Positions 8,290 to 47,568 of a stretch of DNA of 64,000 bases are shown here, piece by piece. How positions within the stretch are numbered: position 1 is the first letter of the stretch; each line of letters opens with the position of its first letter. The notes below the pieces were generated by a model that saw only the letters and a list, made by a program, of their open reading frames with translations, did not search any database and was not told where the DNA came from. Origin of the DNA: Escherichia phage BUCT632; sequence record PQ488502.1. One strand, 5' to 3'. The position numbers and the translations under genes were made by a program.

Positions 8290-9079
8290 TAAATTAGGGA
8301 ACAGCGAGCCGATTACGCTGAGTGCAGAATCCCAACCGGAGCGCATTGAATAGAGTCGGTGGGTTAGTTGTAAAACTAGTACACAGGGGGCGGCAATCCC
8401 GGTTAGTGGCTAGAACGTGTAAAATGAGGCGTCTGAAACCTCTCCCCTAAACTCTTCTCTAATTTATAAATAGTGGGGTGTGGAAATCACTTATGTAGTA
8501 ACACTGCCGTCCTAGTATAATTGGTATTATCAAGCCGTAACTGGTGGAAGATGTAGGTTCGAATCCTACGGTCGGTAAGAACTGGATAACTGATGCTTTT
8601 AACGTAAAAGCTTCCGAGGTTAGTTGCGCACTGCCTAAACCACGCGGTAGTTGGTTCCAGACTAACCAACCAGTCTGCTGAATAGTTTTATTACGATTTA
8701 ACTATGTCCAGGCTAAAGAAGAACTTTAGAAGGTATTCTAGGATAGTGAAGTTCTTTCTCCATATCGGAGTAGTTTTTCAAGCTATCCACAAAGTGGGAA
8801 ATGCTGACATGAGAGATGTCACTAATGGTGCACAATAGCACAGGTAATTCGCGATAACTCCTGTTGAGTAGCAGCAAAAGGCGGGAAGTCATGACCCCAA
8901 GCCTAACCGAGTCCTCAATATACCGCAGGATATAACCACTAAGTCACCCTGACTTAAACTGGAAAATAATAGACGTTACCGTATTTTGTCTTGAAATACT
9001 TAATGAGTGAGACTTATGACTCTCCCGGTATCGTCTGTATTTTTAAGAGTTTTTACGAGAGTTCTTAAAAATACTTAAA
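8290..9079 (+). ncRNA. Promoter-driven ORF-free region; candidate structured non-coding RNA(s) or degenerate tRNA
   Basis: no plus-strand ORF of 60 aa or more; T-arm-like hairpin GTAGG-TTCGAAT-CCTAC at 8553-8569 with acceptor-like pairing 8506-8512/8570-8576 but no anticodon arm; several local hairpins. Confidence 0.3.
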
Positions 9080-9154
9080 CGGGGTGTAGTCTAAGGGAGA
9101 GGCAGGAGTCTTCTAAATTCCTTTATGCAGGTTCGAATCCTGTCACCTCGGCCA
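9080..9154 (+). tRNA. tRNA-Arg (anticodon UCU)
   Basis: acceptor CGGGGTG/CACCTCG, D-stem GTCT/AGGC, anticodon arm GGAGT-CTTCTAA-ATTCC, T-arm GCAGG-TTCGAAT-CCTGT, encoded CCA. Confidence 0.7.
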
Positions 9155-9188
9155 ATTTTATTAACTGTAACTAAAACAAAGGAAACAT

Positions 9189-10136
9189 ATGTTTAATACT
9201 AAAAATATGAAAGAACTGACTTCTGAGCAGAAAGTAATTCGTACTATTAAACGTTGGGGTATTGGTGCTGTAGTTGGTTTAGCAGGCTTGATTCTAGCTT
9301 TTAATTCATATACTATTGTTTCTGATGGTACGGTTAAAACCCAAACATTCCTGGGTAAAGTAGATCCTAATCCAGTATTGCCTGGTTTCCATCTTGTAAA
9401 TCCGTTTGCATCTTTCGATACTTTTAGTACAAAAGATATTGCTGTAAAATTAGATAAACTTCAGGTTCCTAGCCAGGATAAGTTTAAATCCACTGTTGAC
9501 CTGACTGTTATGTTGCAGTTTGATGGTTCTAAGGCACCGATTAACCGTATTAACGCAGGTACTCAGGATCAGGCACTAGACAAGTATGTAACTGAAAAAT
9601 TATTGTCTACTATTCGTGAGTTTGGTAAGTCTGTACCTAAAGCACAAGATTTGTTTGATGCTAAAATTCAGGCTCAATTACAAACTGCAATTCAACAGGA
9701 AGTTGAAGAGTATGCACGCCCATATGGTTACACAGTTAAGCAGGTGTTCCTTCAGGATATTACTCTGCCACCAGTAATCATGGAGCAGGTACAGAATACC
9801 AAAGTTCGTGAAGAGCAAGTTAATGCTGCGAAAGCTGAACTGGCTCGTGTTGAACAGGAAGCACAGCAGAAGGTTAAACAAGCAGAAGCAGATCGTGAAG
9901 CTCGTAATAACCAAGCTATTGCTAATGAACGTGACGCAGATGCTAAACTGTATGCAGCTAAGAAAGAAGCTGAAGCTAACGCCGCACTGCAACGTACCAT
10001 TACTCCTGAGATGATTCGTTGGAAACAACTGGAAGTTGAAATGATTCGTGCTCAGAAATATCAAGGTGGTGTACCGCAGACTGTGGTTGGCACTGGCTAT
10101 GATGGCCAAATGATTATGGATATGCGTAATAAATAA
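9189..10136 (+). CDS. SPFH/band-7 (prohibitin/HflK-like) membrane protein
   Basis: N-terminal TM segment, SPFH-like core and C-terminal Ala/Glu/Gln-rich coiled coil. Confidence 0.7.
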   Translation: MFNTKNMKELTSEQKVIRTIKRWGIGAVVGLAGLILAFNSYTIVSDGTVKTQTFLGKVDPNPVLPGFHLVNPFASFDTFSTKDIAVKLDKLQVPSQDKFKSTVDLTVMLQFDGSKAPINRINAGTQDQALDKYVTEKLLSTIREFGKSVPKAQDLFDAKIQAQLQTAIQQEVEEYARPYGYTVKQVFLQDITLPPVIMEQVQNTKVREEQVNAAKAELARVEQEAQQKVKQAEADREARNNQAIANERDADAKLYAAKKEAEANAALQRTITPEMIRWKQLEVEMIRAQKYQGGVPQTVVGTGYDGQMIMDMRNK

Positions 10137-10160
10137 TACCCGCATGTAACATCTGAAGTA

Positions 10161-10195
10161 AGCCCTGCGTTCCCTGGAGAGCGCAGGGTTTTTCT
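10161..10195 (+). terminator. Rho-independent terminator
   Basis: GCCCTGCG...CGCAGGGT hairpin followed by TTTTTCTG. Confidence 0.7.
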
Positions 10196-10213
10196 GTATT
10201 TAAGATAAAAGAA

Positions 10214-10248
10214 AAGCCCCTAAGTCTTTCGACTAGGGGCTTTATTGT
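10214..10248. terminator. Bidirectional hairpin terminator between convergent genes
   Basis: AGCCCCTAAGTC / GACTAGGGGCT stem flanked by A-run upstream and T-run downstream. Confidence 0.6.
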
Positions 10249-10460
10249 TTGGTTCTTTAGAACCATATACTCTTATTACAGCAACCACCCATACGGGAGG
10301 CCAATCTTGACTGAAAATCTACTCTAGGGGGCAGGATAAGAGTAGGCTTAAAGGCAAACGGATTGAACGCCGGTATTTGCGTAAACATTGCTGGAGAGCA
10401 ACAACGTGCTACAGGCATTGGGCAGCACGAAACAGATTTTCTGCAACACATAATTCCTCC

Positions 10461-10877
10461 TTAGGAGTTATTACCACCATTTTGAGCTTTTGCAACTTGG
10501 CTTTGGCAGAAGCTATTAAACTTACCCATAAGTGATACAAGCTGTTTCCCATCCTCTGTCTTTGCGAAGTCTTCGAAAAGGGCTAGTACTGCCTGTCCTT
10601 CCGCAGAAACCTGCGATTGTTGGGTTTGTTGCTGAACTTGCTGCTGCGGCACCTGTTGCTGCATTTGTTGAGGCATTTGCGACTGCCCGCTCATTTGCTG
10701 CATCATTTGTATAGGACTCACACTTCCAGGGTTTTGCTGGAGTTGTTGCTGCATCTGTTGCGCTTCTGCTAAACGCTGTTGCAATTGTTGTAAGTAGGGG
10801 TTATCCAGACCCGGAATGGGCTGCTGGGAGCCCATACTTTGATTAAGTCCGTTATTTACAAAACCATATTTACTCAT
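10461..10877 (-). CDS. Hypothetical glutamine-rich low-complexity protein
   Basis: 138-aa minus-strand ORF, Q-rich repeats (QQMQQQLQQ, QQQVQQQTQQ); one of few minus-strand genes in the early region. Confidence 0.5.
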   Translation of the reverse strand: MSKYGFVNNGLNQSMGSQQPIPGLDNPYLQQLQQRLAEAQQMQQQLQQNPGSVSPIQMMQQMSGQSQMPQQMQQQVPQQQVQQQTQQSQVSAEGQAVLALFEDFAKTEDGKQLVSLMGKFNSFCQSQVAKAQNGGNNS

Positions 10878-10898
10878 AATGGGCTCCTCCCCTTAATA

Positions 10899-11888
10899 TT
10901 AAGCCGGCAGTTTAGCCTGCAGACCAGCCAGAGTCTGAGTGATAGCACCAAGACTTAAAGCGATTTGATTAATTACCTGACCGTTAGCACCGCTACCTGC
11001 AGCGATTGCTTCACGTAGGCGACATGCATCTAACTCATCCTGGATACGCGCAGTAGTTACACCAGCGATCGCAGTCTGAAGTTCACAGCAACATTCAGCG
11101 ATCTGACGTTCCAGAGAGTTCTGGTTAGCACACATCTGAGCCTGAACAGCGGCAAACTGGTTATTAGTTTGTAAAGTCTGCTGGAAAGCGATCTGTGCAG
11201 AATCAAACTTATCTTGTGCACGAGCTATCTGGTTAGCTGCGAAAGATTGATCAATCTGGCGAGAAAGATCGAACTGACCCTGAATAACGTTGCGAGTTTC
11301 CTGGCAGATCTGATTAGATAGATTAGCACCTGTACCATAGATCGTAGTTAGTACAGACTGAGTATCACGGCTCTGGTTTTGGGATGTCTGGCTAAAACCA
11401 TTGTTAACTGCGCTTAAAACAGCTCCAGTACCCTGGTTAGCTTCTGTACGAGTAGTGTTAATAGCTGCTAGAATACTAGCGGTATCTTGGTTCTGAAGTA
11501 CTGCATCAACTGCGGTACCTTCACCAACTACACCACGTCCACCGAATCCACCGAAACCACCGAATCCGCCTGTTAATAGAGCACCGATTAGGATAGCTCC
11601 GAATAGTCCCATACCTTCACCACCGAAAGCACCTGCGTTTGCTGGGTAACCACCCAGTAGGCCAGGGAAGCCACTAGTGAATACGTTTACTGGTTCTTGC
11701 ATTTTATGTTTTCCATATTTATGACAATGTTCATCATCATCTTCTTCATCATCTTCATCGTGTTCGCGATGTTTCTCTTCGTAGGCTCTGACCTTCTCCC
11801 ACTTTTTCTTATCTGATTCCTCGTGACGGTGCAGTTCTGCTGCAACGCTAGCGACGGTCTCAGGACTCTTAGCTACTTCTTCTGTCAT
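10899..11888 (-). CDS. Hypothetical protein with acidic His/Asp/Glu-rich segment and Gly-rich (GGFGGFGGFGG) segment
   Basis: minus-strand ORF; start taken at ATG 11888 preceded by AGGAGGTG RBS (track start 11948 is further upstream). Confidence 0.5.
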   Translation of the reverse strand: MTEEVAKSPETVASVAAELHRHEESDKKKWEKVRAYEEKHREHDEDDEEDDDEHCHKYGKHKMQEPVNVFTSGFPGLLGGYPANAGAFGGEGMGLFGAILIGALLTGGFGGFGGFGGRGVVGEGTAVDAVLQNQDTASILAAINTTRTEANQGTGAVLSAVNNGFSQTSQNQSRDTQSVLTTIYGTGANLSNQICQETRNVIQGQFDLSRQIDQSFAANQIARAQDKFDSAQIAFQQTLQTNNQFAAVQAQMCANQNSLERQIAECCCELQTAIAGVTTARIQDELDACRLREAIAAGSGANGQVINQIALSLGAITQTLAGLQAKLPA

Positions 11889-12095
11889 TTTTTGACACCT
11901 CCTAGTATATAGAAAATGTGTGTCTCTTTGATCACTCATCCATAACATATACTTTACACTACCCCAGCGAAAATGTCAAGGGGTCTTTAAAAATTGCCCC
12001 CGGATTTTTAGTGGGGTCACAAATTTTGGTCCTCACCACTTATCTGCTACCCTTAAGTGCCCTATGATTTTCCTCTAAAAAGTTAAAAAATTTGA

Positions 12096-12124
12096 TTGCT
12101 TGAATGCTAAATTCTCTGTATAAT
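12096..12124 (+). promoter_or_regulatory. PN25-type sigma70 promoter
   Basis: TTGCTT 12096-12101, 17-nt spacer, TATAAT 12119-12124, leader ATAAATTTGAGAGAGG. Confidence 0.65.
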
Positions 12125-12154
12125 ATATCTATAAATTTGAGAGAGGAACCAAAT

Positions 12155-12673
12155 ATGAATGTTGATGAGCTAACACAGCACCTCTTATCTAGAGGATTTG
12201 ATACAGATAAATATCATTGCTGGTTAAGTCCGGAAGGGTGGCTAACAGTCCCGTTGTATGATTTCTCTGGAATGTTGAGGGGCTATCAAACTTATAATCC
12301 TTCTGCTCCAAAAGGTCATGGTAAGTGCCCATTTGAAGCTAAATACTTTACTTATTCTACTACACAGTGTGTATGGGGACTAGAAACTCTCAATGGAGAT
12401 GAAAAAGTAGTATTGATCGCTGAATCTGTATTTAAGGCAGTTGCGTTACATAATGCGGGTTATCCAGCCCTGGCAATGTTGGGTTCTTCTCCAGGAAAAG
12501 CGTTATTAAAGCAACTGAAATTACTACCTTTTAAATTGGTAGCTGTTGGAGACAATGATCCCGATGGTGAAAAATTTGCTAGACAATTAAATGGATTTGT
12601 TTCTCCTGTAGATGTAGATGAGATGTCTACCGAAAACTTGAAAAATTTTCTTGCTATGAAGCTAAATTTCTAA
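12155..12673 (+). CDS. Hypothetical protein (possible Toprim-like fold)
   Basis: ORF from ATG 12155 after promoter; segment VVLIAESVF...VAVGDNDPDGEKFA loosely Toprim-like. Confidence 0.45.
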   Translation: MNVDELTQHLLSRGFDTDKYHCWLSPEGWLTVPLYDFSGMLRGYQTYNPSAPKGHGKCPFEAKYFTYSTTQCVWGLETLNGDEKVVLIAESVFKAVALHNAGYPALAMLGSSPGKALLKQLKLLPFKLVAVGDNDPDGEKFARQLNGFVSPVDVDEMSTENLKNFLAMKLNF

Positions 12674-12694
12674 TATAATATATCTTATAAATTC

Positions 12695-12783
12695 GGAAGA
12701 ATAGCATAACGGTATTGCAGCAGATTGCTAATCTGTCGGTTTGAAATATAGCCTTGTGGGTTCGATTCCCACTTCTTCCGCCA
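12695..12783 (+). tRNA. tRNA-Ser (anticodon GCU), type II
   Basis: acceptor GGAAGAA/TTCTTCC, anticodon loop TTGCTAA, long variable arm, T-arm GTGGG-TTCGATT-CCCAC, encoded CCA. Confidence 0.75.
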
Positions 12784-12789
12784 GATTTT

Positions 12790-12867
12790 GGTTCTCAAGC
12801 TCATATGGTATGAGCACCCGGCTCATAACCGGAAGGTACGTAGGTTCGAATCCTCGGGGAGCCACCA
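12790..12867 (+). tRNA. tRNA with CAU anticodon (Met or Ile2)
   Basis: acceptor GGTTCTC/GGGAGCC with G-U pairs, D-arm GCTC-ATATGGTAT-GAGC, anticodon loop CTCATAA, T-loop TTCGAAT, CCA. Confidence 0.65.
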
Positions 12868-12885
12868 ATTAAATAGAGGTCACAA

Positions 12886-13074
12886 ATGGATCTATATATA
12901 GTTTATGTTGTGTTTATTCAAGATAGAGAATACCCGGGTGAATATAAAAAAGGATATAGGTTAGCCAGAGCTACCTCTGAAGCCCAAGCTATGGATAAAG
13001 TGGCGGATTATATGATTACAGTAGAAAACGTACACTATATCGACTACCTTGAAGCCTCAAAAGTAATTGACTAA
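12886..13074 (+). CDS. Hypothetical small protein
   Basis: 62-aa ORF between tRNA genes. Confidence 0.35.
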   Translation: MDLYIVYVVFIQDREYPGEYKKGYRLARATSEAQAMDKVADYMITVENVHYIDYLEASKVID

Positions 13075-30519: not shown

Positions 30520-30765
30520 ATGTTAGCAGAACAAGCAAAACGTTTAACCAGAATAAATAGAGCTGCACTTCTTAAGAGCAGAAAGAAATCATATAAGTAT
30601 GTTAAAAAGAGAATAGTTTCTTCTGTGGAGATTGGGGGTTCTTTTGTACAGTTTAATCGTGATGAAATTAGTTATGAAGCTATAAAAGCCCTCTATAAAG
30701 AGGGTTATACTCTCCAACTATCTAATGATTATGGCACAACTATTTTAACTGTTATTTGGGAATAA
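30520..30765 (+). CDS. Hypothetical small basic protein
   Basis: 81-aa ORF. Confidence 0.4.
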   Translation: MLAEQAKRLTRINRAALLKSRKKSYKYVKKRIVSSVEIGGSFVQFNRDEISYEAIKALYKEGYTLQLSNDYGTTILTVIWE

Positions 30766-30767
30766 TT

Positions 30768-31631
30768 ATGAAAAAAGAATTTAATGTACATAAAACTCTA
30801 GTAGTGCCTGATGACGCCAACTTATTTTTCGTTGGTGATATTCATGGATGCAATGATTTGCTAGAAGATGCGTTGAAATTAGCAGGGTATAATGGCAAAA
30901 AAGATTGCTTAGTATGTGTTGGTGACTTAATTGACCGAGGCACACAAAACCTACAAGTTTTAGCCAAATTCCTGTATAATCCACATTTTATCAGTGTCCG
31001 TGGTAATCATGACCAATTTATGATTGCAGGAGATTGGGCTAATTGGATGTATAACGGTGGTATGTGGGCTATGGATGAGCTGGATGCAGACACCATTAAA
31101 AATATTGCCGAAGATATGGCTGAAAAAATGCCAGTATTCCTAACTGTTAGACATCGTGGTAAGAAGTATGGTGTTGTTCACGGTGGCGTACCTTTTACGT
31201 ACAAAGAATGTGGTAATGAAGTAGAAACCCCAATATGGGATAATCTTATTGCACAAGTAGAAGCAGCTAAGGAAGACCCACATGACCATCCTGGATACCA
31301 TATTGAACCATATTTATGGGATCGAGATGTAATCCAAGAAATAGGCTTCTACTTGTCCAAAAATGGTGAAGAACACCCGTATTTCCAGCGTTATGCAGGA
31401 TTTAAAGAAAAATATATGGTAGAAGTGCCAGAGGTTAAAGGGGTAGATTTCGTATTTCACGGACATACTGGGGTTCCTTACCCACTTCTTTATAAAAACC
31501 GTGTTTATCTTGATACTGGCGGTGTTTTCAACGGGCAGTTGACGATTGCGCAAGTTAATGATGAAACGGGTAAAATCACCACATTTACTACACTCCGGGA
31601 AGATAGCTGTGGTGTACAGAGGGTTCTTTAA
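30768..31631 (+). CDS. Serine/threonine protein phosphatase (PPP-family metallophosphatase)
   Basis: motifs GDIHG, GDLIDRG, GNHD in canonical order. Confidence 0.75.
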   Translation: MKKEFNVHKTLVVPDDANLFFVGDIHGCNDLLEDALKLAGYNGKKDCLVCVGDLIDRGTQNLQVLAKFLYNPHFISVRGNHDQFMIAGDWANWMYNGGMWAMDELDADTIKNIAEDMAEKMPVFLTVRHRGKKYGVVHGGVPFTYKECGNEVETPIWDNLIAQVEAAKEDPHDHPGYHIEPYLWDRDVIQEIGFYLSKNGEEHPYFQRYAGFKEKYMVEVPEVKGVDFVFHGHTGVPYPLLYKNRVYLDTGGVFNGQLTIAQVNDETGKITTFTTLREDSCGVQRVL

Positions 31632-32152
31632 TGAAAGTTCGCTTTTGGAGTGATCTCCACTTGTGGCATGCAAATATTACTAAATTCAGACCAATCTTCT
31701 CTACTATGGAAGAGCATGACGAATTTATTATGGATACTATTACATCCGTGAAAGATAAGCGTACAGTATTCTATATTTTAGGAGACGCATTTGTATCTAG
31801 AAATGGTTTGGAGAAGTTCGAAAAACTCTTTGGCAATGTTAGAACTACGTTAGTTTTGGGAAACCACGACTTAGAACGAGAAGGATTATCTTTCAAAGAC
31901 TTAATAGGGATTGTAGATAATGTACAATCACTAGTTAAGTATAAAAACTTCTGGCTTTCCCATGCTCCAATACACCATGGGGAGCTGAGAGGTAAGAAGA
32001 ACTTACATGGGCATACTCACTTTGAGCTAATGGGGGATCCTCGTTATATTAACGTTTGTGTCGAGTATGCAAAATCACCAGTACGTCTGGAAGACATCAT
32101 GAGTGGTAAGTATACCTCACATGATAAAACTAGCTGGATGTTAAATGTCTGA
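31631..32152 (+). CDS. Calcineurin-like metallophosphoesterase
   Basis: 173 aa; SDLHLWH, GDAF, GNHDLE, HGHTHFE motifs. Confidence 0.6.
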   Translation: MKVRFWSDLHLWHANITKFRPIFSTMEEHDEFIMDTITSVKDKRTVFYILGDAFVSRNGLEKFEKLFGNVRTTLVLGNHDLEREGLSFKDLIGIVDNVQSLVKYKNFWLSHAPIHHGELRGKKNLHGHTHFELMGDPRYINVCVEYAKSPVRLEDIMSGKYTSHDKTSWMLNV

Positions 32153-32260
32153 GTATATAGCTGAGGCTATTATTAAACGAATCATACAAGCGATAGCAAT
32201 ACTTATAATCATTTATATTGCTATTGGCACAGGATTAGGCATTTTAATTAAAAGTTTTAT

Positions 32261-32289
32261 TTGCTAAAATGCTTAAGTTTCTGTATAAT
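32261..32289 (+). promoter_or_regulatory. PN25-type sigma70 promoter
   Basis: TTGCTA 32261-32266, 17-nt spacer, TATAAT 32284-32289. Confidence 0.6.
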
Positions 32290-32319
32290 TACTTTATAAA
32301 TTGATGAGAGGGAATCAAA

Positions 32320-32751
32320 ATGAACAAAGTTGATAAAGCTCTAGTTTTCGCAGCAGCAGATAAGTTTGAACAAGTTAAGGCAACTTTCCGAACCTTATTC
32401 CAGTCTTACGTTCAGGATAAGTCTAACCCTATCTCTGAACGTTTGATGGTCTGGGAATGTCATGCTTGCAATGCCCTATTAATTGCTGATTATCGTAGCG
32501 ATATAGATAAAGATCTGTGCGAAATTCTTATCCCTGAGGAGGCAGAACGTTATCAGTTAATCTCTTTCCAAGATTTGGCGGAGCATATCATTCCTGATGA
32601 TCTTTGGGATAAATACTATGGTGATCCTGAAGATGAAGGAATGACTCCAGAAGCCTGTATTGAGCTGATCTGCAAAGATCATCCTGAAATTGCAGAGAAA
32701 TTTGAAAAAGTTTTTGCTTCTGAGTTCTCCGGCGTTGTTAACGATTGGTAA
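32320..32751 (+). CDS. Hypothetical acidic protein
   Basis: 143-aa ORF downstream of promoter. Confidence 0.45.
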   Translation: MNKVDKALVFAAADKFEQVKATFRTLFQSYVQDKSNPISERLMVWECHACNALLIADYRSDIDKDLCEILIPEEAERYQLISFQDLAEHIIPDDLWDKYYGDPEDEGMTPEACIELICKDHPEIAEKFEKVFASEFSGVVNDW

Positions 32752-32768
32752 GTAATTAAAAAATTCAG

Positions 32769-32797
32769 TTGCTTTAAGCCTTAAAATTCTGTATAAT
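32769..32797 (+). promoter_or_regulatory. PN25-type sigma70 promoter
   Basis: TTGCTT 32769-32774, 17-nt spacer, TATAAT 32792-32797. Confidence 0.6.
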
Positions 32798-32829
32798 AAG
32801 TTCATAAATTAATGAGAGAGGAAATTCTA

Positions 32830-33081
32830 ATGGAAAACATGACTAAAAACGAAATGGCTAACGTTCTGGCAATTCTCCTCGACATGCAGGGTTTTGAGGG
32901 TCAGCTCATGAAGATGTCTATTCCAGCAATGAAAAAGATGTATGATTCTCTGAATAAGAATGCTATGGCATTCAACCTTGCAAAACAGGAAGCACGTTTT
33001 GCTAAAGAGCATCAGGCGACTGCCGAACGCCGTGCAGCATCTTTTGAGCGTGAAGTTAAGCAACTGAAAGGTAAGAAATAA
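32830..33081 (+). CDS. Hypothetical protein
   Basis: ORF from ATG 32830 downstream of promoter. Confidence 0.45.
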   Translation: MENMTKNEMANVLAILLDMQGFEGQLMKMSIPAMKKMYDSLNKNAMAFNLAKQEARFAKEHQATAERRAASFEREVKQLKGKK

Positions 33082-33247
33082 TAATGGAAAGAGTATCAAT
33101 TTCAATACTGTCATTCCTTATAGGAATACTAATATATAATATGGTTTCTCTTAACATACGCTTAACTGAAGTAGACAAGTCTCTTCATGAGCTAAACGTA
33201 GAGATTTGCAAAGTAACTCCAAATAACGAAAAATGTAGGGGTATTTA

Positions 33248-33529
33248 ATGTTAATTGAAATTCTCATTGGATTGCTAGTGCTTATGACACTAGCAGCGAT
33301 TGGTGGAGTTATTGGTATTGTAAGCATACGAAAAAATATGGAGAGTATGCTTATTACTAATAGTGGACTCCACTGTCGCTTAATAGAACAAGAACAAGAT
33401 ATTGAACTAGCACAAAGACGCTCAGATATTCTAAAAGAAAAACTAAACAATATTGAAGCAATAGCTGGGGATACAAAATTACCTAATAAAGTAATGCGTG
33501 CACAGATAATTACGGAGATTAAAAAATGA
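33248..33529 (+). CDS. Hypothetical membrane protein
   Basis: 93-aa ORF, N-terminal TM segment. Confidence 0.4.
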   Translation: MLIEILIGLLVLMTLAAIGGVIGIVSIRKNMESMLITNSGLHCRLIEQEQDIELAQRRSDILKEKLNNIEAIAGDTKLPNKVMRAQIITEIKK

Positions 33530-33771
33530 TGATGTTTATTCTAGCGTTTTATCTAATTGTGGTTGGTGTACTGGTTACTAAATACCACACATGGACGCCA
33601 AAGAATGTTGTTAAGGTAGCCTTATTTGTTATTCCAGTTCCACTTATTATCTTTTCTATGTTACTGGTGATGTTAGTTGGTAAAGTAACAAAAACCGATA
33701 TTAAACGTATTGCTGATGAATTGCAACAGTCTTGTGATATGGTAGAGGATATTCTTAAAGATGAAGCTTAA
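33526..33771 (+). CDS. Hypothetical membrane protein
   Basis: 81-aa ORF with two TM segments. Confidence 0.4.
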   Translation: MMMFILAFYLIVVGVLVTKYHTWTPKNVVKVALFVIPVPLIIFSMLLVMLVGKVTKTDIKRIADELQQSCDMVEDILKDEA

Positions 33772-34087
33772 TTTTAATGAATTAAATACCTTACATGAGA
33801 TACTACAGTTTGTGAATAATAATATTAGTATTCCAGATGATACATTAGAAGTTCTCACGTTAATCGAGAAAAAGGTAGGAATTGAGATTGAGGACTCTTG
33901 GAAACCACTTTCTGTATTAACACCACTTAATATGAAAGTGATAGTTAAAAATATTGATACTGGTGAAGAGTGTGAAATGATTCGTAAAGAACTAGCTGAT
34001 AGCTATTCACCAAAGTCTGTAGTAATGTACCATGATGATACCGCTAAGACTCTACAGACAGCTAATTACGTATGGCGTCTCCCATGA
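33761..34087 (+). CDS. Hypothetical protein
   Basis: 108-aa ORF. Confidence 0.45.
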   Translation: MKLNFNELNTLHEILQFVNNNISIPDDTLEVLTLIEKKVGIEIEDSWKPLSVLTPLNMKVIVKNIDTGEECEMIRKELADSYSPKSVVMYHDDTAKTLQTANYVWRLP

Positions 34088-34383
34088 TTGATTTAGTACC
34101 AATTACTGCGGGGCTAATAGCACTATTAGTGCTTGCAGTTTTTATTATTGTGGAGCAGGCCAAAGTAATAAGGAGACTTAAAAACAATGATAAAACGTCT
34201 TGTTTATCAGGCACCAAAGATTGTAACTGAGTATTTTGTATTACTTCCTCAGATTGTATTTCTAACAGCATTATTTAATATACTTTTTCGACATCTAGGA
34301 ATAACGGAAAATATCTTCTACACTTCTGGACTACTTCCTTTTATGTACGAAGGCATCATCGTGGCAATTAACGGAGTTCGTAA

Positions 34384-34845
34384 ATGACAGCACTACAACA
34401 ACTACAGAATTACTGGTTTGATAATCAATTTAACGATCTCTTTATCCAGTTATTTGTCGAAACGAACGGACGCTTCAACTACCGATTCTTTAATAAGTTT
34501 CATGAAACAAAATTCTCCCATACAGAAATTAATGCAGCGATCCAAGACCTAACTGGTTCTAAAGTAGTTCAATATCGTGAAGTAGACTTTACACCAGATT
34601 GTTTTGGGTTTGAATTGTTTAAGAAAGCATATAAATTTGGTAAGTTTGAAGATGCTCGTCAATGGGTTCATGATTTCTGGTACAACACTGATATTGTTCC
34701 TAGTCGTGTACTGATTCTTAACTGGATTGCTAAACAACATCCACCTAAAACTCAATCGTCCTTCTTACCAACTGACACAGGAAACCTCTACCATGACAGA
34801 AAAGAAAAATCCATTGCTGGAGCAGATGAAGGAATGGGAGAGTAA
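34384..34845 (+). CDS. Hypothetical protein
   Basis: 153-aa ORF. Confidence 0.45.
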   Translation: MTALQQLQNYWFDNQFNDLFIQLFVETNGRFNYRFFNKFHETKFSHTEINAAIQDLTGSKVVQYREVDFTPDCFGFELFKKAYKFGKFEDARQWVHDFWYNTDIVPSRVLILNWIAKQHPPKTQSSFLPTDTGNLYHDRKEKSIAGADEGMGE

Positions 34846-35164
34846 TATTGAATCTGGTCTAGTAGACGGTGAAGATATTGTTAACTCCATGTTAGAAGTA
34901 ACAATAGATAATATTAATCCTATTTTGGCGGGGGAAGCTTCTGATCTTATAGGACTTTCTAGTACTTTCGATTCTTTGGCTAAATTAGCTTTAGATGATG
35001 AAGAGATAACCAAAGAAGATCTCGCCTCAGCTATGAATATGGCTATTAACGCTTACATTGGCAAACGTACCGATGAACTCGACAAACAAATCAAAAAGCG
35101 TGATACAACGTTAAATCTTATGGAAACGGCCACTATGTTAAGAAGTGGTAAACAACTTCATTAA
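34793..35164 (+). CDS. Hypothetical acidic protein
   Basis: ORF from ATG 34793; followed by hairpin AGGCCAG...CTGGCCT at 35171-35196. Confidence 0.4.
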   Translation: MTEKKNPLLEQMKEWESNIESGLVDGEDIVNSMLEVTIDNINPILAGEASDLIGLSSTFDSLAKLALDDEEITKEDLASAMNMAINAYIGKRTDELDKQIKKRDTTLNLMETATMLRSGKQLH

Positions 35165-35218
35165 TTCTAGAGGCCAGGACTTAATTGTTCTGGCCTTTTG
35201 TGTTTCAAGGAATTTCAA

Positions 35219-35422
35219 ATGCAAGTATACGTCCTTACTAGAGATATAAATGAGTATAATCAGGATGGTGAATATTTTGTAAAGGTATTCGCTGAAAAGC
35301 CAAGTAAACAACAATTATTAGATGCTGGAGTACCAGAAGACCAGGCTAAGTGTATATTACAAGATAAAGAGTTTACTGGTGATGCTTACGAATGTTTCTA
35401 CCTTAGCTGTGAGAATATCTAA
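35219..35422 (+). CDS. Hypothetical small protein
   Basis: ORF from ATG 35219. Confidence 0.4.
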   Translation: MQVYVLTRDINEYNQDGEYFVKVFAEKPSKQQLLDAGVPEDQAKCILQDKEFTGDAYECFYLSCENI

Positions 35423-35423
35423 T

Positions 35424-35870
35424 ATGAGAGAAAAAGTAAATGAATTACTAATCGAGGAAGCTAACAACTTCCCAATAAATAGGTTTATCAAATCGGATGG
35501 ATCTATTAATAGAACCAAGATTAAGCAGCTACATCCCGACTTTCAGCAAGAAGCACTAAATCTTATATTTATCAAGAAAGCTGTTGCAGTTCATGGAGCT
35601 TTCTTTGGGTATGAGCGTGTAAATTACAAAACAATGCAACAGCAAGTCGAGATCTATTGTCCGGACCATGAAGGGTATTACTGGCAAACTGCTAGATCTC
35701 ATTTAGAAGGGCATGGTTGTCGACTGTGTGCACACAAGGTTGTGCAGCGTGTCACAGATTATGGAACCTACACCGTGCCAGCATGTTACCATAAATTTGT
35801 AATTGACGATAATCATATAGTTTGGTATAATAAGTTTTCAAAGTTAAGAATGGAGATAAATAGTGAGTAA
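35424..35870 (+). CDS. Hypothetical protein with Cys/His cluster
   Basis: ORF from ATG 35424; CPDHEGYYW...HGCRLCAHK. Confidence 0.4.
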   Translation: MREKVNELLIEEANNFPINRFIKSDGSINRTKIKQLHPDFQQEALNLIFIKKAVAVHGAFFGYERVNYKTMQQQVEIYCPDHEGYYWQTARSHLEGHGCRLCAHKVVQRVTDYGTYTVPACYHKFVIDDNHIVWYNKFSKLRMEINSE

Positions 35871-36153
35871 CTATATTATATGGTCAAATCCATTAGCAGC
35901 ACTTAGTAACAAACTATTTAAAACAACGTGGGGCTATAATGAAATAGACTTAAGCAGTCGCCCAATACCAAATACATGCTCACTAGTCCCAGATCTGTAT
36001 AAAGTAGTAATAAATAACGTAGAATATTTGGTTGACGAATTTGATAGAAGGCATATACTAGAGAGTATTTATGATGCCAATATATCAATGAATGAATTAA
36101 TAGATCATGCCCAAATGTGTGATAAAAGCTGGATGTTAATATGGAAATCATAG
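35863..36153 (+). CDS. Hypothetical protein
   Basis: 96-aa ORF. Confidence 0.4.
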   Translation: MSNYIIWSNPLAALSNKLFKTTWGYNEIDLSSRPIPNTCSLVPDLYKVVINNVEYLVDEFDRRHILESIYDANISMNELIDHAQMCDKSWMLIWKS

Positions 36154-36374
36154 CAATTATTTTAGTAGTTATGTTATTCATCGTAGTACTTGTATCTTTT
36201 GCTATTATGCGTAGAGCTAGAGAACTAGCAGAAGATCTAGTAAAATTACGTGGTGAGTTAGCTGCTCTTAAATTACAACGAGAGGCCTTAAAAGTATTTG
36301 TAGCTCAAGGTAGCGCAGCGCATACAGCAGAAGACTTCATCGTATATCTCAAACGTTACGTGGGAATCAAATAA
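36141..36374 (+). CDS. Hypothetical membrane protein
   Basis: 77-aa ORF with N-terminal TM segment. Confidence 0.4.
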   Translation: MEIIAIILVVMLFIVVLVSFAIMRRARELAEDLVKLRGELAALKLQREALKVFVAQGSAAHTAEDFIVYLKRYVGIK

Positions 36375-36559
36375 TGGAAACATTACTTCTTGTATTATTA
36401 GGAGGCTCACTCCTAATAATCCTGGGACTGATACTGATTTGCAGTCGCCTCAATACTAAGAATCTAGAGTTAACCTGTGAGAATGAAATTCTCAATAATG
36501 AACTCTTTCAATATAACATCGCAGCCCATAAACTGTTAGACAAACTGGAGAATAAATAA
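36374..36559 (+). CDS. Hypothetical small membrane protein
   Basis: 61-aa ORF, hydrophobic N-terminus. Confidence 0.35.
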   Translation: METLLLVLLGGSLLIILGLILICSRLNTKNLELTCENEILNNELFQYNIAAHKLLDKLENK

Positions 36560-37179
36560 TGACTTTTAATGCACAACAACCTATTCAAGTAGTACCGGAT
36601 CATGAACTGAACACATGGGATTATAGCTTTAAAGATTTAACTGCTACTGTACAATTTAAATCTATGAAGCTAACATTTGCACATAATGACCTTAGAGCAT
36701 GTAAAGATCTTGAGGATAAGCTCGAAGATGCTCGTAAGATTTTTGGCAAGGCTCGCATCCCAGCTGATAATCTAATTAACGCATTAATCGATGCAGGGTA
36801 CAAACTTGTGAAGACTGAGGTGAACCGCCCTAGTACTCCAGTGACTATTAGAGATCCGTGGCAGTCAGGGACAATCTCAATGCTGAATAACTCCGATAAA
36901 AGATTAATGTCGGATATGCACAATGTTCCTTGTGGGGGTGTGGTAAGTAGTACGCAGTCATATAAGTTTGTGGAAGATTACGGCCCTTCTGTACAGTTGA
37001 AACATACTCAAGAAGCTTTTGAATCTGATATGCGAAGCGTAGCACCTGCGGATGTTGGAGTTTCTAGGAGTTCTGTTTGTACTATTCATTTTAATAATCC
37101 TGGTCAACATGGAAGTTTAGAAGATGCTATTATGGAGGCGTTGGGAGCTGCCATTAATGAAGATAATAGGGGTAGCTAA
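36559..37179 (+). CDS. Hypothetical protein
   Basis: 206-aa ORF; followed by hairpin GAGCCTC-TACG-GAGGCTC. Confidence 0.5.
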   Translation: MTFNAQQPIQVVPDHELNTWDYSFKDLTATVQFKSMKLTFAHNDLRACKDLEDKLEDARKIFGKARIPADNLINALIDAGYKLVKTEVNRPSTPVTIRDPWQSGTISMLNNSDKRLMSDMHNVPCGGVVSSTQSYKFVEDYGPSVQLKHTQEAFESDMRSVAPADVGVSRSSVCTIHFNNPGQHGSLEDAIMEALGAAINEDNRGS

Positions 37180-37257
37180 TCCTCTAATACATGAGCCTCT
37201 ACGGAGGCTCTAAAATAAAAAGAAGGTCATCCAGACCTTAAAAATGAGAGATAAATA

Positions 37258-38142
37258 ATGTATAACTTTAAAGATAAACTAAGACAAAATGCTGGCAAAG
37301 GAAAGGCAAAGGAGAATAATAGTGTTCCTAATGCTAAAGTACTTCCGTTTCCTGAACTAACTCAAGAAGAAAAAGATAAACTAGCATTTATGTTCGATGC
37401 ACTTATAGGATTAAGTGGACGACTGTACTCCACCCTTAGTCTTAATGAGAAACGTCTAGTAGAGATGTTTTGTAAACGTTACCCAGTTACTTCAAAGGGC
37501 AATGCCCATAAAGAAGGTGAAAAAGCATTCACAGTCTTAAAAATCAGTGCATATGCACATCGTTTCTTAGTTTATGGGTTACAGATGGAATACTTCACCA
37601 TTCCACCATTTAAGTCATTTCACATTTTTGAAGATGAACGAATGAATATTGATGATCTCTATGGAGATACGTACAAATATTCAGGGAGTCCATTCCATGA
37701 TGCATTAAGAAGCTATCCTACTAGTTATTTACCAGTTAGGGCATCACAAGGTAAAGCTAGCATCTTTGCGGTATACTCAGGATCTAAAGCATCTGATCTA
37801 GAAACTTATATATTTAAAGAGCGTAAATCTGTGCTTCCAGATGAAGCATTATATAATAATCCATTGCTTCCAGAAAAAGAACCAGAGAAAATTGATGTAA
37901 CCCCACCAACCCCATCTGATTCTCCTTATCTGAAGTTTGAAAATCAAGTTGGATGGGTTCTAGAAATGGGTGTAGCCTCACCGCTTGCTGCAGCATTCAT
38001 CAATAGGTATCTAGAAATTCCTGACGAGTTCCACTCACGTTATAATACGAATATTCAGATTACAGATGAATTAATAGCCATTGCAAAAGGTACACCTACT
38101 GACACTGAGGCGTATCAAAAAGCATACCAAGAGTTACTATAA
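37258..38142 (+). CDS. Hypothetical protein
   Basis: 294-aa ORF with RBS GAGAGA; last plus-strand early gene before the repeat locus. Confidence 0.5.
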   Translation: MYNFKDKLRQNAGKGKAKENNSVPNAKVLPFPELTQEEKDKLAFMFDALIGLSGRLYSTLSLNEKRLVEMFCKRYPVTSKGNAHKEGEKAFTVLKISAYAHRFLVYGLQMEYFTIPPFKSFHIFEDERMNIDDLYGDTYKYSGSPFHDALRSYPTSYLPVRASQGKASIFAVYSGSKASDLETYIFKERKSVLPDEALYNNPLLPEKEPEKIDVTPPTPSDSPYLKFENQVGWVLEMGVASPLAAAFINRYLEIPDEFHSRYNTNIQITDELIAIAKGTPTDTEAYQKAYQELL

Positions 38143-38562
38143 GATCCTGCATGTCTCGGTGCACAATACCTGTACCGAGACTCAAATACAAACTCTCGTT
38201 GACAGATAGCTAAATGTATGTTATCATAACTCTATGAGTTAATAGAATTAACCATTTAGAGTTGCCACACAGAAGGTGTGGTGGTTCAGTAATTTAAAAT
38301 TACTAACTTGTAGCGGAGGATACGGAGCGACAGGACAAGTTAATAAGTAATTTAATATAAATTGCTAGAAACATCACGAGACCTTCTGGCGGGGCAAAGC
38401 TCTATATGAGAACCCTGGGGGGATCTTATATTTAAAATAAAAGTAAAACTTTTGACCACATAATTTACATTCAAGATGATACACCGGTTGCCGCTCATCT
38501 GCTAGGATGGCACAACACTTTCCTAAAAACTCCAGAGTTCTCACGAAATATCACACTTCTAG

Positions 38563-38640
38563 TGGGCGGTTCTCCTAAGTTTCTAGGAACATATACTAGG
38601 CGGTTTAATACAGGGCGGTTATTGGGAGGGCGGTTATTTC
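38563..38640. repeat. Four direct copies of GGGCGGTT spaced about 20-25 bp
   Basis: GTGGGCGGTT, TAGGCGGTT, AGGGCGGTT, AGGGCGGTT within 80 bp. Confidence 0.6.
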
Positions 38641-38679
38641 TAGAAGGCATTTTTCCAAAACACATTTCCAGAAATTACT

Positions 38680-39279
38680 GTCGGATTTGCACACTGACAT
38701 AAGTTTAAAAACTGGTCGGATTTGCACAATTGCCTAAGTTTTTAGGAACATATAATCTCCTGAAAATGGCAGCATTATTTCGGGCCGAAGGCCCATGATT
38801 GCCTGAGTTTTTAGAGCCACAGAAATTTTCACTTGTCAAGCTATTTTGCCCCATTTTGCTAATAAAATTTTACTTTATCTCACCCCAAGCCCAATTAACC
38901 CAAATCTTCTCAACTCTTCCCCAAAAACGCAGCAAATCAGGCGTTGCACGCCACCAATGCTGCTCCTCTCGCAGTTCCCCCTATTTTCTCTCGCTCTCTC
39001 ATCTTATCCCCAAACCCACACAATCACACACCCTCTCATCGAAGTCACAAAAATCTTGTCGGATTCGCACATCTTAATCCTAGAAAAACCGTGTCGGATT
39101 TGCACATACCCCACAGGATTCGAACGCAGTTCGAGATTGCTGGAGTTTTTGGGAGACAGATTCGTCACTCTCACGAATTTATAAATTTTTCGGGTCGGAT
39201 TTGCACACTACCAAAAATTGTCGGATTTGCACATACACGCCCGCACGTAACACCCGTGGAGCAATGTCGGATTTGCACA
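38680..39279. repeat. Seven direct copies of 14-bp iteron-like motif GTCGGATTTGCACA
   Basis: copies at 38680, 38715, 39058 (variant GTCGGATTCGCACA), 39093, 39193, 39219, 39266; irregular spacing. Confidence 0.8.
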
Positions 39280-39282
39280 AAA

Positions 39283-39306
39283 GCGCAGGGCAATTGCCCT
39301 GCGCTA
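39283..39306. repeat. Perfect 24-bp palindrome AGCGCAGGGCAATTGCCCTGCGCT
   Basis: 10-bp GC-rich arms around AATT centre. Confidence 0.75.
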
Positions 39307-39530
39307 AATGAGAATAAAAATAAGAATCATTCTCATTTAAAAAGCGGAATGAGAATGATAATAATTCGCATTTAGAAAGTGAAACGATTCTCACTTAGAA
39401 AGTGGAATGATTCTCATTTAAAAAACGGAATGAAAATTATTCAGGAAGTGAAACGATTCTCATTTAGAAAGTGGAATGCGAATGATAATGATTCGCATTT
39501 AAGAATGGAAGTGAGAAACACTGCTATTTA
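39307..39530. repeat. AT-rich degenerate tandem repeat array (units like GAATGATTCTCATTTAAAAA)
   Basis: at least 8 related units of about 20-25 bp with GAATGA/TCTCATTT cores. Confidence 0.65.
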
Positions 39531-39615
39531 AGTTATCCACAGACTTATCAACAGCACGATTTGACTTGACAAAATCCTAGCCATTTTGAAGCGTTATTAA
39601 CAGACTTATCCACAG
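39523..39615. promoter_or_regulatory. Two DnaA-box consensus sites (TTATCCACA)
   Basis: TTATCCACA at 39523-39531 and 39607-39615, exact matches to E. coli DnaA box consensus. Confidence 0.6.
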
Positions 39616-39960
39616 CTTATCCTACTGTATAAATATACAGTATTCCTATGCAGTGAATAATTCTAATATACCGCTAAAACGCTCTCAAAGATTGGAGGAG
39701 GCTTGAAAATTAGTTAGCCCGCTAACGATCACACAAGGCGACACGTAACACCCTAATCATTAGCAGGCTAACCATCGCGGGCGCTGTCAAATAAGAATGA
39801 TTCTTATTTGAGAATTGGGGGCACTTCCTGATAGTTGCGCCCCGTGATTATTATAGTAGTGGGCAATCGTTACGCTTTGCCCACTCCCGCCACTCATCTT
39901 GATGCCTAGACTTGCGACGGCGTACTAAAAACCGTTTGTACCAGTGATTAAACCATCGTT

Positions 39961-40164
39961 TCATAAATCTTCCTCCGGTAGTCGATGCGTGATTTTTTCC
40001 TCTTCCCCGTAGGAATCCACTAAATACTGATAATAACCATCGTGATCATAAATCACTTTATCATACTCGCCACGCTCGACCGCTTGTCTATTTTCCGGCG
40101 TATCGGGCACGTAAAAAACATCAACCATTGTGCTAGTTTTGGTCACAACAATTTTATTGCTCAT
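39961..40164 (-). CDS. Hypothetical protein
   Basis: 67-aa minus-strand ORF, first of a minus-strand block. Confidence 0.4.
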   Translation of the reverse strand: MSNKIVVTKTSTMVDVFYVPDTPENRQAVERGEYDKVIYDHDGYYQYLVDSYGEEEKITHRLPEEDL

Positions 40165-40216
40165 AATAACGCTCCGTTACTATATAATCTCGTTGCAATA
40201 CACCAAAATTATATAG

Positions 40217-40432
40217 TTACTCATATTCTAGCTCGAAAATATCCTCACCATATAATTTGATTAAATCAACTAAATAAAACGCTGTGCCAGTATTATTATT
40301 TCTCCTTATAAATCTATGATTCGCGTCTTTAAATACAGTGAATACATCACCTGTTTTACCTACTCCCCATAAATCCTGTGTTAATTTTACCCGTTTAACC
40401 TTTAGCAACATATTCCAAGTAATTTCATTCAT
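40217..40432 (-). CDS. Hypothetical protein
   Basis: 71-aa minus-strand ORF. Confidence 0.4.
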   Translation of the reverse strand: MNEITWNMLLKVKRVKLTQDLWGVGKTGDVFTVFKDANHRFIRRNNNTGTAFYLVDLIKLYGEDIFELEYE

Positions 40433-40788
40433 TGCGCCACCTTTCGAAACGCTGTTTCAATACTATCCGCAGTGGATTGAATATATGCGCCTTTCATTAT
40501 CAGGCGCTCGGTGCATACTTTGCGGAAAATATTAATAAAATCATCTTCATTTTCTGCAATTAATGCTTCCCCCATAACTTGAACGTCACAAGATGCAAAG
40601 GTCAAAAATTGAAACGCTAGTTCACGGGCAACGACCGCATTGATTTTATAATGCGCCTTGCCCTCATAAATATTAATAACGCCCTTATAAGCTGGGGAAA
40701 GCTGATTTAAGTAGTTTGCTAGTAATGCCGGACGGCAATTAGCAACAAAACGATTACCTTCATAAATAACCATTTGACAACCTCCCAA
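40429..40788 (-). CDS. Hypothetical protein
   Basis: 119-aa minus-strand ORF overlapping downstream gene by 4 nt. Confidence 0.4.
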   Translation of the reverse strand: MGGCQMVIYEGNRFVANCRPALLANYLNQLSPAYKGVINIYEGKAHYKINAVVARELAFQFLTFASCDVQVMGEALIAENEDDFINIFRKVCTERLIMKGAYIQSTADSIETAFRKVAQ

Positions 40789-40896
40789 TTATATAGCCGG
40801 ATAATAACATAAAGATCCCCAATGAAAGGGGATCATTCTTAAATAGGGTGGCTGTAAAACCGCCAACCATTGCAAGGATAATAACAATAACGCTTT

Positions 40897-41109
40897 TCAT
40901 AGCACCCCACGAAACGCAGCGTAAAAGGTGGCAAAATGTTTAACCGTTTCAGCGATCACGTTGCCGCGCTTATCAAATTTCTTTTCTGTAACACGAAAAG
41001 CGTTTTTATTACGTGCTACATATTCGATTTTACAATCTTCCCGCTCGAACGTGTTAACATCCACCAGCTTAAATCCTTTCGAACGTGCAAGAGAAACGTT
41101 ACGGATCAT
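40897..41109 (-). CDS. Hypothetical protein
   Basis: 70-aa minus-strand ORF. Confidence 0.4.
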   Translation of the reverse strand: MIRNVSLARSKGFKLVDVNTFEREDCKIEYVARNKNAFRVTEKKFDKRGNVIAETVKHFATFYAAFRGVL

Positions 41110-41307
41110 TTTTATTCTCCTTTACTAGTCATGCAGCCCAGCAGATAAGAAAACGCAGCAATGCCAGCGCCAATAATAACGGCGTGAACGCCAAAAGCTA
41201 TTGCAAATAACGATAAAATAGCGCCCAAGATACCCGCCAGAATAGCTCGAAAAATAATCATTTTTATTCTCCTAGTCAGTGGGGGATATAATATCCCCCG
41301 TTACTAA

Positions 41308-41538
41308 TTACATTAAAACAATTTTTGCGGCTTGTTTTTTAGTGCAATGTTCAGCTTTCAGGGTATCCAGCAAAAAGCCCGCCGTTTGCTGATCGATTTT
41401 ATCGGCGTTGTATAGTTCTTGGATGGTGTTATAAGTTTTAGCAATGCCGAACTCCTGCACCATTTCATGAATAACAACGCGATTGGACACCCAACCTTGA
41501 GCGGTAAACAGATGAGTAGCAGAAGAGTAAGCAACCAT
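41308..41538 (-). CDS. Hypothetical protein
   Basis: 76-aa minus-strand ORF. Confidence 0.4.
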   Translation of the reverse strand: MVAYSSATHLFTAQGWVSNRVVIHEMVQEFGIAKTYNTIQELYNADKIDQQTAGFLLDTLKAEHCTKKQAAKIVLM

Positions 41539-41642
41539 TTTAAGCCTCCAAATTTTTGGGAAATTTTCAATCCACCGTTTTGGTGTAAAGGCATTATAAC
41601 AAAAAAGGCCACCATAAAAGGCGACCTTTACAAAACTTTACA

Positions 41643-45003: not shown

Positions 45004-45104
45004 TGTAGTGTTAACTTTATATTCCCCTGAAATATGGGGAATATATGGATTAACATTTAGTTAATCATTAAATCCCTTAAATTAAACTAATAGGAGTTTT
45101 TACC

Positions 45105-45512: not shown

Positions 45513-45513
45513 T

Positions 45514-45557
45514 AGTTATACCTTGCCCCCTTCTAGTGAGGGGGCAATAATATAACT
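45514..45557. other. Long palindromic hairpin (no U-tract) after gene
   Basis: AGTTATACCTTGCCCCC...GGGGGCAATAATATAACT. Confidence 0.5.
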
Positions 45558-47561: not shown

Positions 47562-47568
47562 TTAAATT

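Follow-up and report, generated by a model that had tools for sequence, protein, structure and literature searches.

Bacteriophage T5 and its relative BF23 carry among their tRNA genes a short operon that has been annotated in both phages. In the T5 record (NC_005859) the features follow one another in the order promoter P12, T5.077 (966 bp), T5.078 (417 bp), T5.079 (195 bp), an 'efficient bidirectional rho-independent transcription terminator' and a major nick site, and the BF23 tRNA-region record (AJ604530) lists 'ORF 326aa', 'ORF 138aa', 'ORF 64aa', P12 and 'ter1'. All products of the operon are listed as hypothetical in both phages, and full-text literature searches for the gene names T5.077-079 and ORF077-079 returned nothing relevant. 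Here we describe the corresponding island of minus-strand genes in Escherichia phage BUCT632 (PQ488502.1), within a stretch of 64,000 nucleotides that we call the window. The T5 equivalent of the island lies at 38064-39671 of NC_005859. As a sequence feature the island is not new, since the records of T5 and BF23 already catalogue the operon together with its promoter and terminator.

We used megablast with positions 9000-13000 of the window and obtained 470 phage records, the best of which were Tequintavirus genomes with 97.6% identity over the whole query; phage JLBYU40 showed 97.6% DNA identity to the window. These matches identify the window as part of a T5-like phage and place the island in its early tRNA region. 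The window is oriented antisense to the T5 GenBank record and has 22 tRNA genes on the plus strand. A preliminary description of this DNA, made from the sequence alone, reported a minus-strand island inside a plus-strand early region, and the island was indeed the sole credible minus-strand coding unit among the plus-strand early genes of the first ~38 kb, with a reversal in the sign of the GC skew over it. An SPFH gene and a Toprim gene adjoin the island, which is antisense to both, with P12 upstream and the bidirectional terminator downstream; the equivalent neighbours in T5 are the SPFH 'lipoprotein' T5.080 and the Toprim protein T5.076. The T5 genes and the BF23 ORFs (open reading frames) are orthologous to those of the island (81-98% protein identity), have the same neighbours, the same P12, the same bidirectional terminator and an adjacent nick, and differ only slightly in length. 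By sequence and gene order, this island and the T5.077-T5.078-T5.079 operon found in Tequintavirus and Epseptimavirus are orthologous.

Three co-oriented ORFs make up the island (Table 1), as in the orthologous operons, where they measure about 320-345, 130-146 and 64 aa; we refer to those of the island from P12 onward as genes 1, 2 and 3 and to their products as proteins 1, 2 and 3. The two adjacent minus-strand genes that had been proposed at 10461-10877 (138 aa) and 10899-11888 (329 aa) stand exactly as placed, each with a GGAGG-type Shine-Dalgarno (SD) sequence and each found in 222 records. A two-gene island was incomplete, as both ORFs are real and a third gene, the T5.079 ortholog at 10257-10451 on the minus strand, had been missed. 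In tblastn searches genes 1, 2 and 3 were found in 222, 222 and 221 phage records, with the T5 and BF23 proteins at 81-100% identity. This conservation indicates that all three ORFs are real genes and not chance ORFs.

Gene 3 is the least documented of the three. Its SD overlaps the stop codon of gene 2, and its ORF was at least 80% identical in each of the 221 phage records, most sampled records listing no feature under the match. ORFs of 60-69 aa occupy the position of gene 3 in distant syntenic loci (L004, L005, L006 and L010), which include Pseudomonas phage RSP and a contig of 61.7 kb that encodes a Mu-like portal. These ORFs always start with MCC and have a second CC doublet and an NPF-like motif, at loci where protein 1 is just 35-45% identical. 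One of these loci, the non-T5 contig L006, carries the same three genes and again has a strong terminator directly past the small gene. Between BUCT632 and the Epseptimavirus STG2, 10 of the 17 nucleotide differences in gene 3 fall at third codon positions. Low-complexity composition, the loss of the operon in many relatives and the fact that it is unneeded in the laboratory might suggest non-functional ORFs, either chance low-complexity frames or decaying remnants. However, the three ORFs are intact in 221-222 genomes with an SD on each, their conserved cores are not of low complexity, the gene order is kept in homologs at 35-45% identity and gene 1 has a strong optimal-codon bias, and we regard the chance that these are not genes as practically negligible.

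The operon begins at P12, a sigma-70-type consensus promoter whose position agrees with that of 'promoter P12' annotated in T5 (NC_005859 37954-38028) and in BF23. The position of the -10 element predicts a transcription start at ~11944. A longer listed ORF, 10899-11948, was rejected as the gene because this start lies downstream of its ATG. At the other end, the hairpin at 10213-10243 is, by the annotation of the two phages, what BF23 calls ter1 and T5 an 'efficient bidirectional terminator'. Folding of 10150-10260 on both strands gave z = -4.9 and -4.6 and two strong hairpins, 10160-10191 and 10213-10243, whereas the upstream end (11950-12090) had no significant hairpin and folded like shuffled sequence (z = -0.6 and +0.2). 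The island had been described as bracketed by bidirectional terminators; this holds for the downstream end, and the upstream end is a divergent promoter region with no terminator. The three genes are one transcription unit, from a sigma-70-type P12 to an intrinsic terminator. The proposal of a separately regulated module agrees well with this layout, with the annotation of the promoter and terminator in T5 and BF23, and with the discrete cassette seen in the comparison with phage HildyBeyeler below.

Table 1. Positions in the window of the operon genes and of the signals in and around the operon.
Feature	Position	Strand	Details
Gene 1, T5.077 ortholog, 329 aa	10899..11888	-	SD GGAGG 11898-11902; phrog_8119; 222 phage records (tblastn)
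Gene 2, T5.078 ortholog, 138 aa	10461..10877	-	GGAGG-type SD; phrog_7894; 222 phage records (tblastn)
Gene 3, T5.079 ortholog, 64 aa	10257..10451	-	start context TAAGGAGGAATTATG; annotated in T5 and BF23 ('ORF 64aa')
Promoter P12 of the operon	11951..11979	-	-35 TTGACA 11979-11974; 17-nt spacer; -10 TAAAGT 11956-11951; promoter scan 10/12 matches
Intrinsic terminator of the operon	10213..10243	-	hairpin, then UUUUCUUUUAU (U-run, minus strand); readable on the plus strand too
Terminator hairpin of the convergent SPFH gene (9189-10136)	10160..10191	+	terminator scan and fold
Divergent promoter of the Toprim gene, equivalent of T5 P15a	12076..12150	+	TATAAT 12119-12124; T5/BF23 annotation mapped by position

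Natural deletions delimit the operon as a unit. T5 st0, which is viable, lacks wild-type positions 33681-41878, a span that covers the operon and both of its neighbours. T5Mos carries a deletion of 30661-38625 (PMC11464382), which, if given in NC_005859 coordinates, takes away P12 together with ~560 nt from the start of T5.077. In the Tequintavirus HildyBeyeler (Bas33) the SPFH and Toprim genes are 287 bp apart. The alignment of HildyBeyeler to the window breaks off at 10216 and resumes at 11918, so that exactly 10217-11917 is absent, that is, the three genes and the terminator. A remnant of P12 is kept, indicating a deletion. RNA-seq and proteomics data for Bas33 (PMC13250531) were considered as evidence of expression and set aside as inapplicable, Bas33 having no cassette. 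The SPFH gene was found in 431 records at 90% identity or more versus 222 with the cassette, which occurs in about half of the close T5 relatives; the SPFH gene is kept in relatives that lack the cassette, and the two are therefore not strictly linked. Taken together, these comparisons show that the cassette is an accessory, dispensable unit that is discretely present or absent.

Protein 1 matched phrog_8119 over residues 1-329 of 329 (hidden Markov model (HMM) search, E = 4.9e-205), and protein 2 matched phrog_7894 over residues 1-138 of 138 (E = 2e-79). PHROGs labels both families 'unknown function', in line with the earlier statement that the role of the module is not known and with the hypothetical products of T5 and BF23. 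The composition that first drew attention to these proteins was as described. Residues 1-62 of protein 1 hold 22.6% Glu, 14.5% Lys, 11.3% His and 11.3% Asp, and residues 63-125 hold 34.9% Gly, including GGFGGFGGFGG, confirming the reported His/Asp/Glu block and glycine block; protein 2, reported as strongly glutamine-rich, is 27.5% Gln. Alignment of relatives identified the conserved parts. In protein 1 these are a helix at residues 12-43, the motif MQEPVNVFTNG, the Gly-rich hydrophobic segment with its glycine-zipper motifs (LFGAILIGALLTGGFGGFGGFGG), and a Q/N/A/T-rich, uncharged helical domain of ~200 aa (residues 126-329). This domain contains a CCC triplet (residues 266-268, nt 11085-11093) that was invariant in 35 of 35 aligned family members. 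Orthologs of protein 1 measure 329 aa here, 321 aa in T5 and 326 aa in BF23; these differences fall in two variable tracts, the acidic/His block and the Gly block. The length of the acidic/His block changes from relative to relative, and in Salmonella phage STG2 the block expands to HHYHHHHHHHEH.

The conserved parts of protein 2 are the N-terminal helix (YLQQLQQRLAEAQ) and, at residues 90-133, a C-terminal helical hairpin in which a single Cys is invariant. The poly-Q linker between them (residues ~49-89, nt 10611-10733) is variable and almost gone in distant homologs. The unusual composition had been taken to suggest a separate module, and this was not supported: the poly-Q and His/Asp/Glu tracts are the variable parts of the proteins, with the Q-rich linker nearly absent in distant homologs and the acidic/His block missing from most of the wider family; on the alignments, they are variable spacers. 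AlphaFold2 modelled the hairpin (92-133) of protein 2 at a predicted local distance difference test score (pLDDT) of 80-90, the only confident part, with the linker disordered. Foldseek of this model against viral structures retrieved only its own family, and a PDB profile search with protein 2 gave nothing useful.

Protein 3 is basic, rich in Cys, Pro, Ser and Phe, and probably disordered. It starts with MCCRKSVSCC, and M1, C2, C3, P13, C17, C18, F23 and P31 (NPF motif) are invariant. Inspection of the sequences of proteins 2 and 3 revealed no hydrophobic N-terminal leader, and that of protein 3 no lipobox. The cysteines and histidines of the three proteins raise the question of whether the operon encodes a cytoplasmic metal-binding (Zn, Ni, Cu or Fe-S-like) or thiol-buffer module, serving phage metabolism or acting against host defence, with the His-rich N-terminus and CCC of protein 1, the CC doublets of protein 3 and the Cys of protein 2 as ligands. 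The His-rich blocks, which reach HHYHHHHHHHEH in STG2, the CCC conserved in all 35 aligned proteins, the invariant MCC and second CC doublet of protein 3 and the leaderless proteins 2 and 3 would fit such a module. However, most of the wider family has no His-rich block, some relatives that carry the cassette have few His residues in this segment, family scans gave no match to known metal-binding families, and a high codon bias together with a 200-aa helical rod is atypical of a metallochaperone. We consider the metal or redox module unlikely.

The codon bias just mentioned is a property of gene 1. Its frequency of optimal E. coli codons (Fop) was 0.64-0.66, rank 4 of 66 ORFs and, among large ORFs, second only to the capsid gene; the major capsid protein gene had a value of 0.80 and the tail tube protein gene 0.60. 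This bias predicts that protein 1 is abundant. The G+C content at third codon positions of gene 1 (0.33) was like that of the rest of the genome, so a foreign origin, considered for the local rise in GC, was rejected, and the rise is attributable to amino-acid composition.

The search for remote homologs that had been suggested for these proteins was productive for protein 1, in that it uncovered a family of uncharacterised phage proteins, and gave no significant PDB, Pfam or NCBIfam match. A profile search of 1.84 billion cluster representatives found 184 relatives of protein 1 at E <= 1e-3, and a second search found at least 366 clusters; the relatives from both searches are all unnamed metagenomic proteins. 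Most are 240-290 aa long and begin just ahead of the Gly-rich segment, sharing the CCC and missing the acidic/His extension. They match phrog_8119, phrog_9288 and phrog_16490, all of unknown function, and these families share the glycine-zipper segment, an N/Q/S/T/A-rich helical domain and the invariant CCC. Searches of Pfam, NCBIfam, PADLOC and the PDB gave no identification for any protein of the family either. Among bacterial genomes there were just three matches to the family, all in metagenome-assembled genomes. These results indicate that protein 1 is a member of a very large, wholly uncharacterised phage family defined by a glycine-zipper segment, a ~200-aa helical domain and an invariant CCC.

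The distant members differ from the T5-like cassette in their company. They are found in head or late modules without 078 and 079, homologs of which were sought in these loci and not found, and have a different partner instead, a conserved protein of 92-102 aa encoded directly after the family gene in 22 of 23 loci; a PDB profile search with this partner gave nothing useful. Proteins 2 and 3 are, as far as these homology searches reach, lineage-specific partners of protein 1. In one metagenomic group the homolog directly follows the genes for the portal, the scaffold and the major head protein, the last of these matching phrog_11589 (E = 3e-138). In a metagenomic locus that carries a distant member of the family (L016, 882-4508), the portal gene (phrog_6547) appeared to be interrupted by an intein-like insert, with portal residues 485-860 matching inserts of large terminase subunits.

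The location of these relatives suggests another role for protein 1, that of a head-associated or morphogenetic protein (a decoration, internal or ejection protein), as the distant relatives may be. The gene order behind the major head protein and the regular 92-102-aa partner would speak for it, as would a codon bias like that of structural genes. Tape-measure and ejection proteins have a composition like that of the Gly-rich hydrophobic segment and long uncharged helices of protein 1. Against this, the gene lies in the early tRNA region behind a sigma-70 consensus promoter, and T5 st0 and HildyBeyeler form normal virions without the cassette. Moreover, the tandem mass spectrometry (MS/MS) table of the BF23 virion contains 18 proteins, none of them from the operon, the product of the 326-aa ORF included (PMC10644984), and on this published evidence from BF23 the operon products are non-virion proteins. 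A role of protein 1 in the head is quite unlikely.

We then considered what the architecture of protein 1 suggests. AlphaFold2 modelled its N-terminal helix (12-43) with a pLDDT above 90 and, further on, a long helix (136-274) that a turn connects to another helix (280-326), with the CCC just ahead of the turn. The model was poor overall (pLDDT 53) and too uncertain for a meaningful fold search. The order of a Gly-rich, fusion-peptide-like segment, a long helix and, after a chain reversal marked by a Cys cluster, another helix could be that of an auxiliary membrane-fusion or lysis factor, either spanin-like or class I fusion-like. A PDB profile search with protein 1 returned mostly influenza HA2 (E = 0.04-1), with GLFGAI... 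and the next helix aligned to the fusion peptide and coiled coil, and endolysin genes (Amidase_3, VanY) are found no more than 1-2 kb from some of the distant homologs. Spanins (Rz/Rz1, T4 PseT.3/PseT.2) and HA2 resemble protein 1 in that a hydrophobic segment precedes long helices that reverse direction close to cysteines, but significant homology, a lipoprotein partner and a C-terminal anchor are all missing, and lysis in the laboratory does not require the cassette.

As a class I fusion protein, protein 1 was rejected on similarity, since the HA2 E-values are not significant and the HA2 matches are not independent of one another; an HA2-like C-terminal anchor was sought and not found, protein 1 ending in ...LAGLQAKLPA right after its last helix. 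The HA2 resemblance is best treated as a lead and not as evidence of homology. A two-component spanin was also rejected. The 64-aa protein has neither lipobox nor leader, and T5 has its own lysis genes ~15 kb away, namely the Rz-like, PseT.2/PseT.3-type spanins T5.044/T5.045, the holin T5.041 and the endolysin T5.040. As to the i-spanin, the hydrophobic segment of protein 1 begins only past ~90 charged residues, its flanking charges do not fix a topology and the heptad signal is weak, which neither favours nor disfavours such a role. The cassette is dispensable for plaque formation, and we think a fusion or lysis factor very unlikely.

The best explanation overall, which we prefer tentatively and at somewhat less than even confidence, is that of the accessory T5.077-079 operon, whose products would form a complex at the envelope of the infected cell. 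Its starting point is the Gly-rich segment of protein 1. In a 19-residue hydropathy scan this segment reached 1.72 at residues 95-113, the only strongly hydrophobic window of the protein, and most family members have values of 1.7-1.9 together with GxxxG spacing. A mechanism can be outlined as follows. Protein 1 would be made in large amounts, as its codon bias predicts, and would be anchored in, or lie on, the inner membrane through the glycine-zipper segment, while its long helical domain would oligomerise. Protein 2, with its one-Cys hairpin, and protein 3, with its MCC...CC, would dock on protein 1 via the cysteine clusters, by metal bridging or disulfides. The three-protein assembly would modify the host envelope during infection, with a benefit under natural but not laboratory conditions, the most plausible effects being blocked entry of competing phages or membrane stabilisation. 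Taken as a whole, this mechanism, an abundant membrane-associated protein 1 and two Cys-bearing partners acting on the envelope, is doubtful.

Several observations weigh against a complex at the envelope. An Arg interrupts the hydrophobic stretch in several homologs, lowering the hydropathy to 1.1-1.5, so membrane insertion of protein 1 is not certain; the charges that flank the segment leave its topology unsettled, and no helix was predicted for the Gly-rich segment in the AlphaFold2 model (pLDDT 35-44). Most of the helical domain has a weak heptad pattern, which becomes clear only at ~245-272 and 301-326. The distant family members in head-gene modules point to a different role for those proteins, and it is from co-inheritance alone that we infer an association among the three proteins. 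Finally, none of the three proteins had a match above the noise level when scanned against Pfam, NCBIfam and PADLOC (for PADLOC none at E <= 0.1 except a meaningless 10-bit match), and neither homology, PDB matches included, nor experiment ties the cassette to a function.

Phages carry moron-type membrane superinfection-exclusion cassettes, such as HK97 gp15, T4 Imm/Sp and T5 Llp. The operon resembles these in having its own promoter and terminator, an opposite orientation, dispensability, a patchy distribution and a predicted membrane association; an autonomous promoter and terminator, dispensability and patchy distribution were all found for the cassette. It differs in that there is no sequence similarity, in that three proteins are encoded here and not one, and in that exclusion by T5.077-079 is putative. 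T5 is, moreover, virulent, so that the cassette would be expressed in lytic growth only. A bolder extension of the envelope complex is that T5.077-type proteins are a widespread unrecognised class of membrane-active proteins, which in T5-like phages would be cysteine-cross-linked with a poly-Q adaptor and an MCC/CC peptide to achieve envelope remodelling or exclusion of a novel type. As protein 1 faintly resembles HA2, the activity might even be fusion-like. We consider this a long shot.

The surroundings of the operon yielded further observations. The SPFH/Band-7 gene (9189-10136, plus strand), convergent with the island, matched Pfam at E = 2e-17 and had an Fop of 0.615, rank 5 of 66. In its terminator hairpin, GCGC at ~10181-10184 corresponds by position to the 'major single-chain interruption' (nick) of T5, which is annotated at 39746-39747, 75 nt beyond the end of T5.079, and BF23 likewise annotates a nick; this correspondence would put the nick site within a terminator stem between convergent genes. 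On the other side, the mechanical ORF of the Toprim gene is 12104-12673 (plus strand), and we placed its true start at 12155 on the basis of the -10 element at 12119-12124 and the T5 annotation (519 bp). In the Epseptimavirus STG2 (L011, 188-1922) a PnuC-like transporter and a nicotinamide-nucleotide adenylyltransferase gene, not a Toprim gene, lie upstream of the cassette, suggesting that its upstream neighbourhood differs between genera.

An Rfam scan of the region returned tRNAs only. Two matches to the tRNA model were not reported by ARAGORN, at 12790-12864 (plus strand, 40.3 bits) and 8506-8577 (plus strand, 35.5 bits). The first is in the place of T5 tRNA-Ile2(CAU), beside tRNA-Ser, and the second is upstream of a tRNA-Arg gene in the region labelled RNAX in T5. 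At 45000-64000 of the window, the early region is succeeded, without a change of strand, by pre-early and late genes, with ORFs that by size look like A1 (556 aa), the major capsid protein (458 aa) and the tail tube protein (464 aa). This arrangement on one strand suggests that the record is a permuted assembly in which the terminal repeat seems to be collapsed.

In summary, the preliminary description was largely right in what it observed but incomplete. What the present analysis adds to the T5 and BF23 annotation is a clean presence/absence cassette that laboratory strains can do without, a third gene that is unannotated under most sampled database matches, a corrected regulatory layout, the finding that conservation lies outside the conspicuous low-complexity tracts, and a link through protein 1 from T5 to a very large metagenomic phage family. 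Beyond that link, the operon is one more phage gene set without an assigned function. T5 is genetically tractable and has natural deletion strains, which makes the cassette a convenient entry to the protein 1 family.

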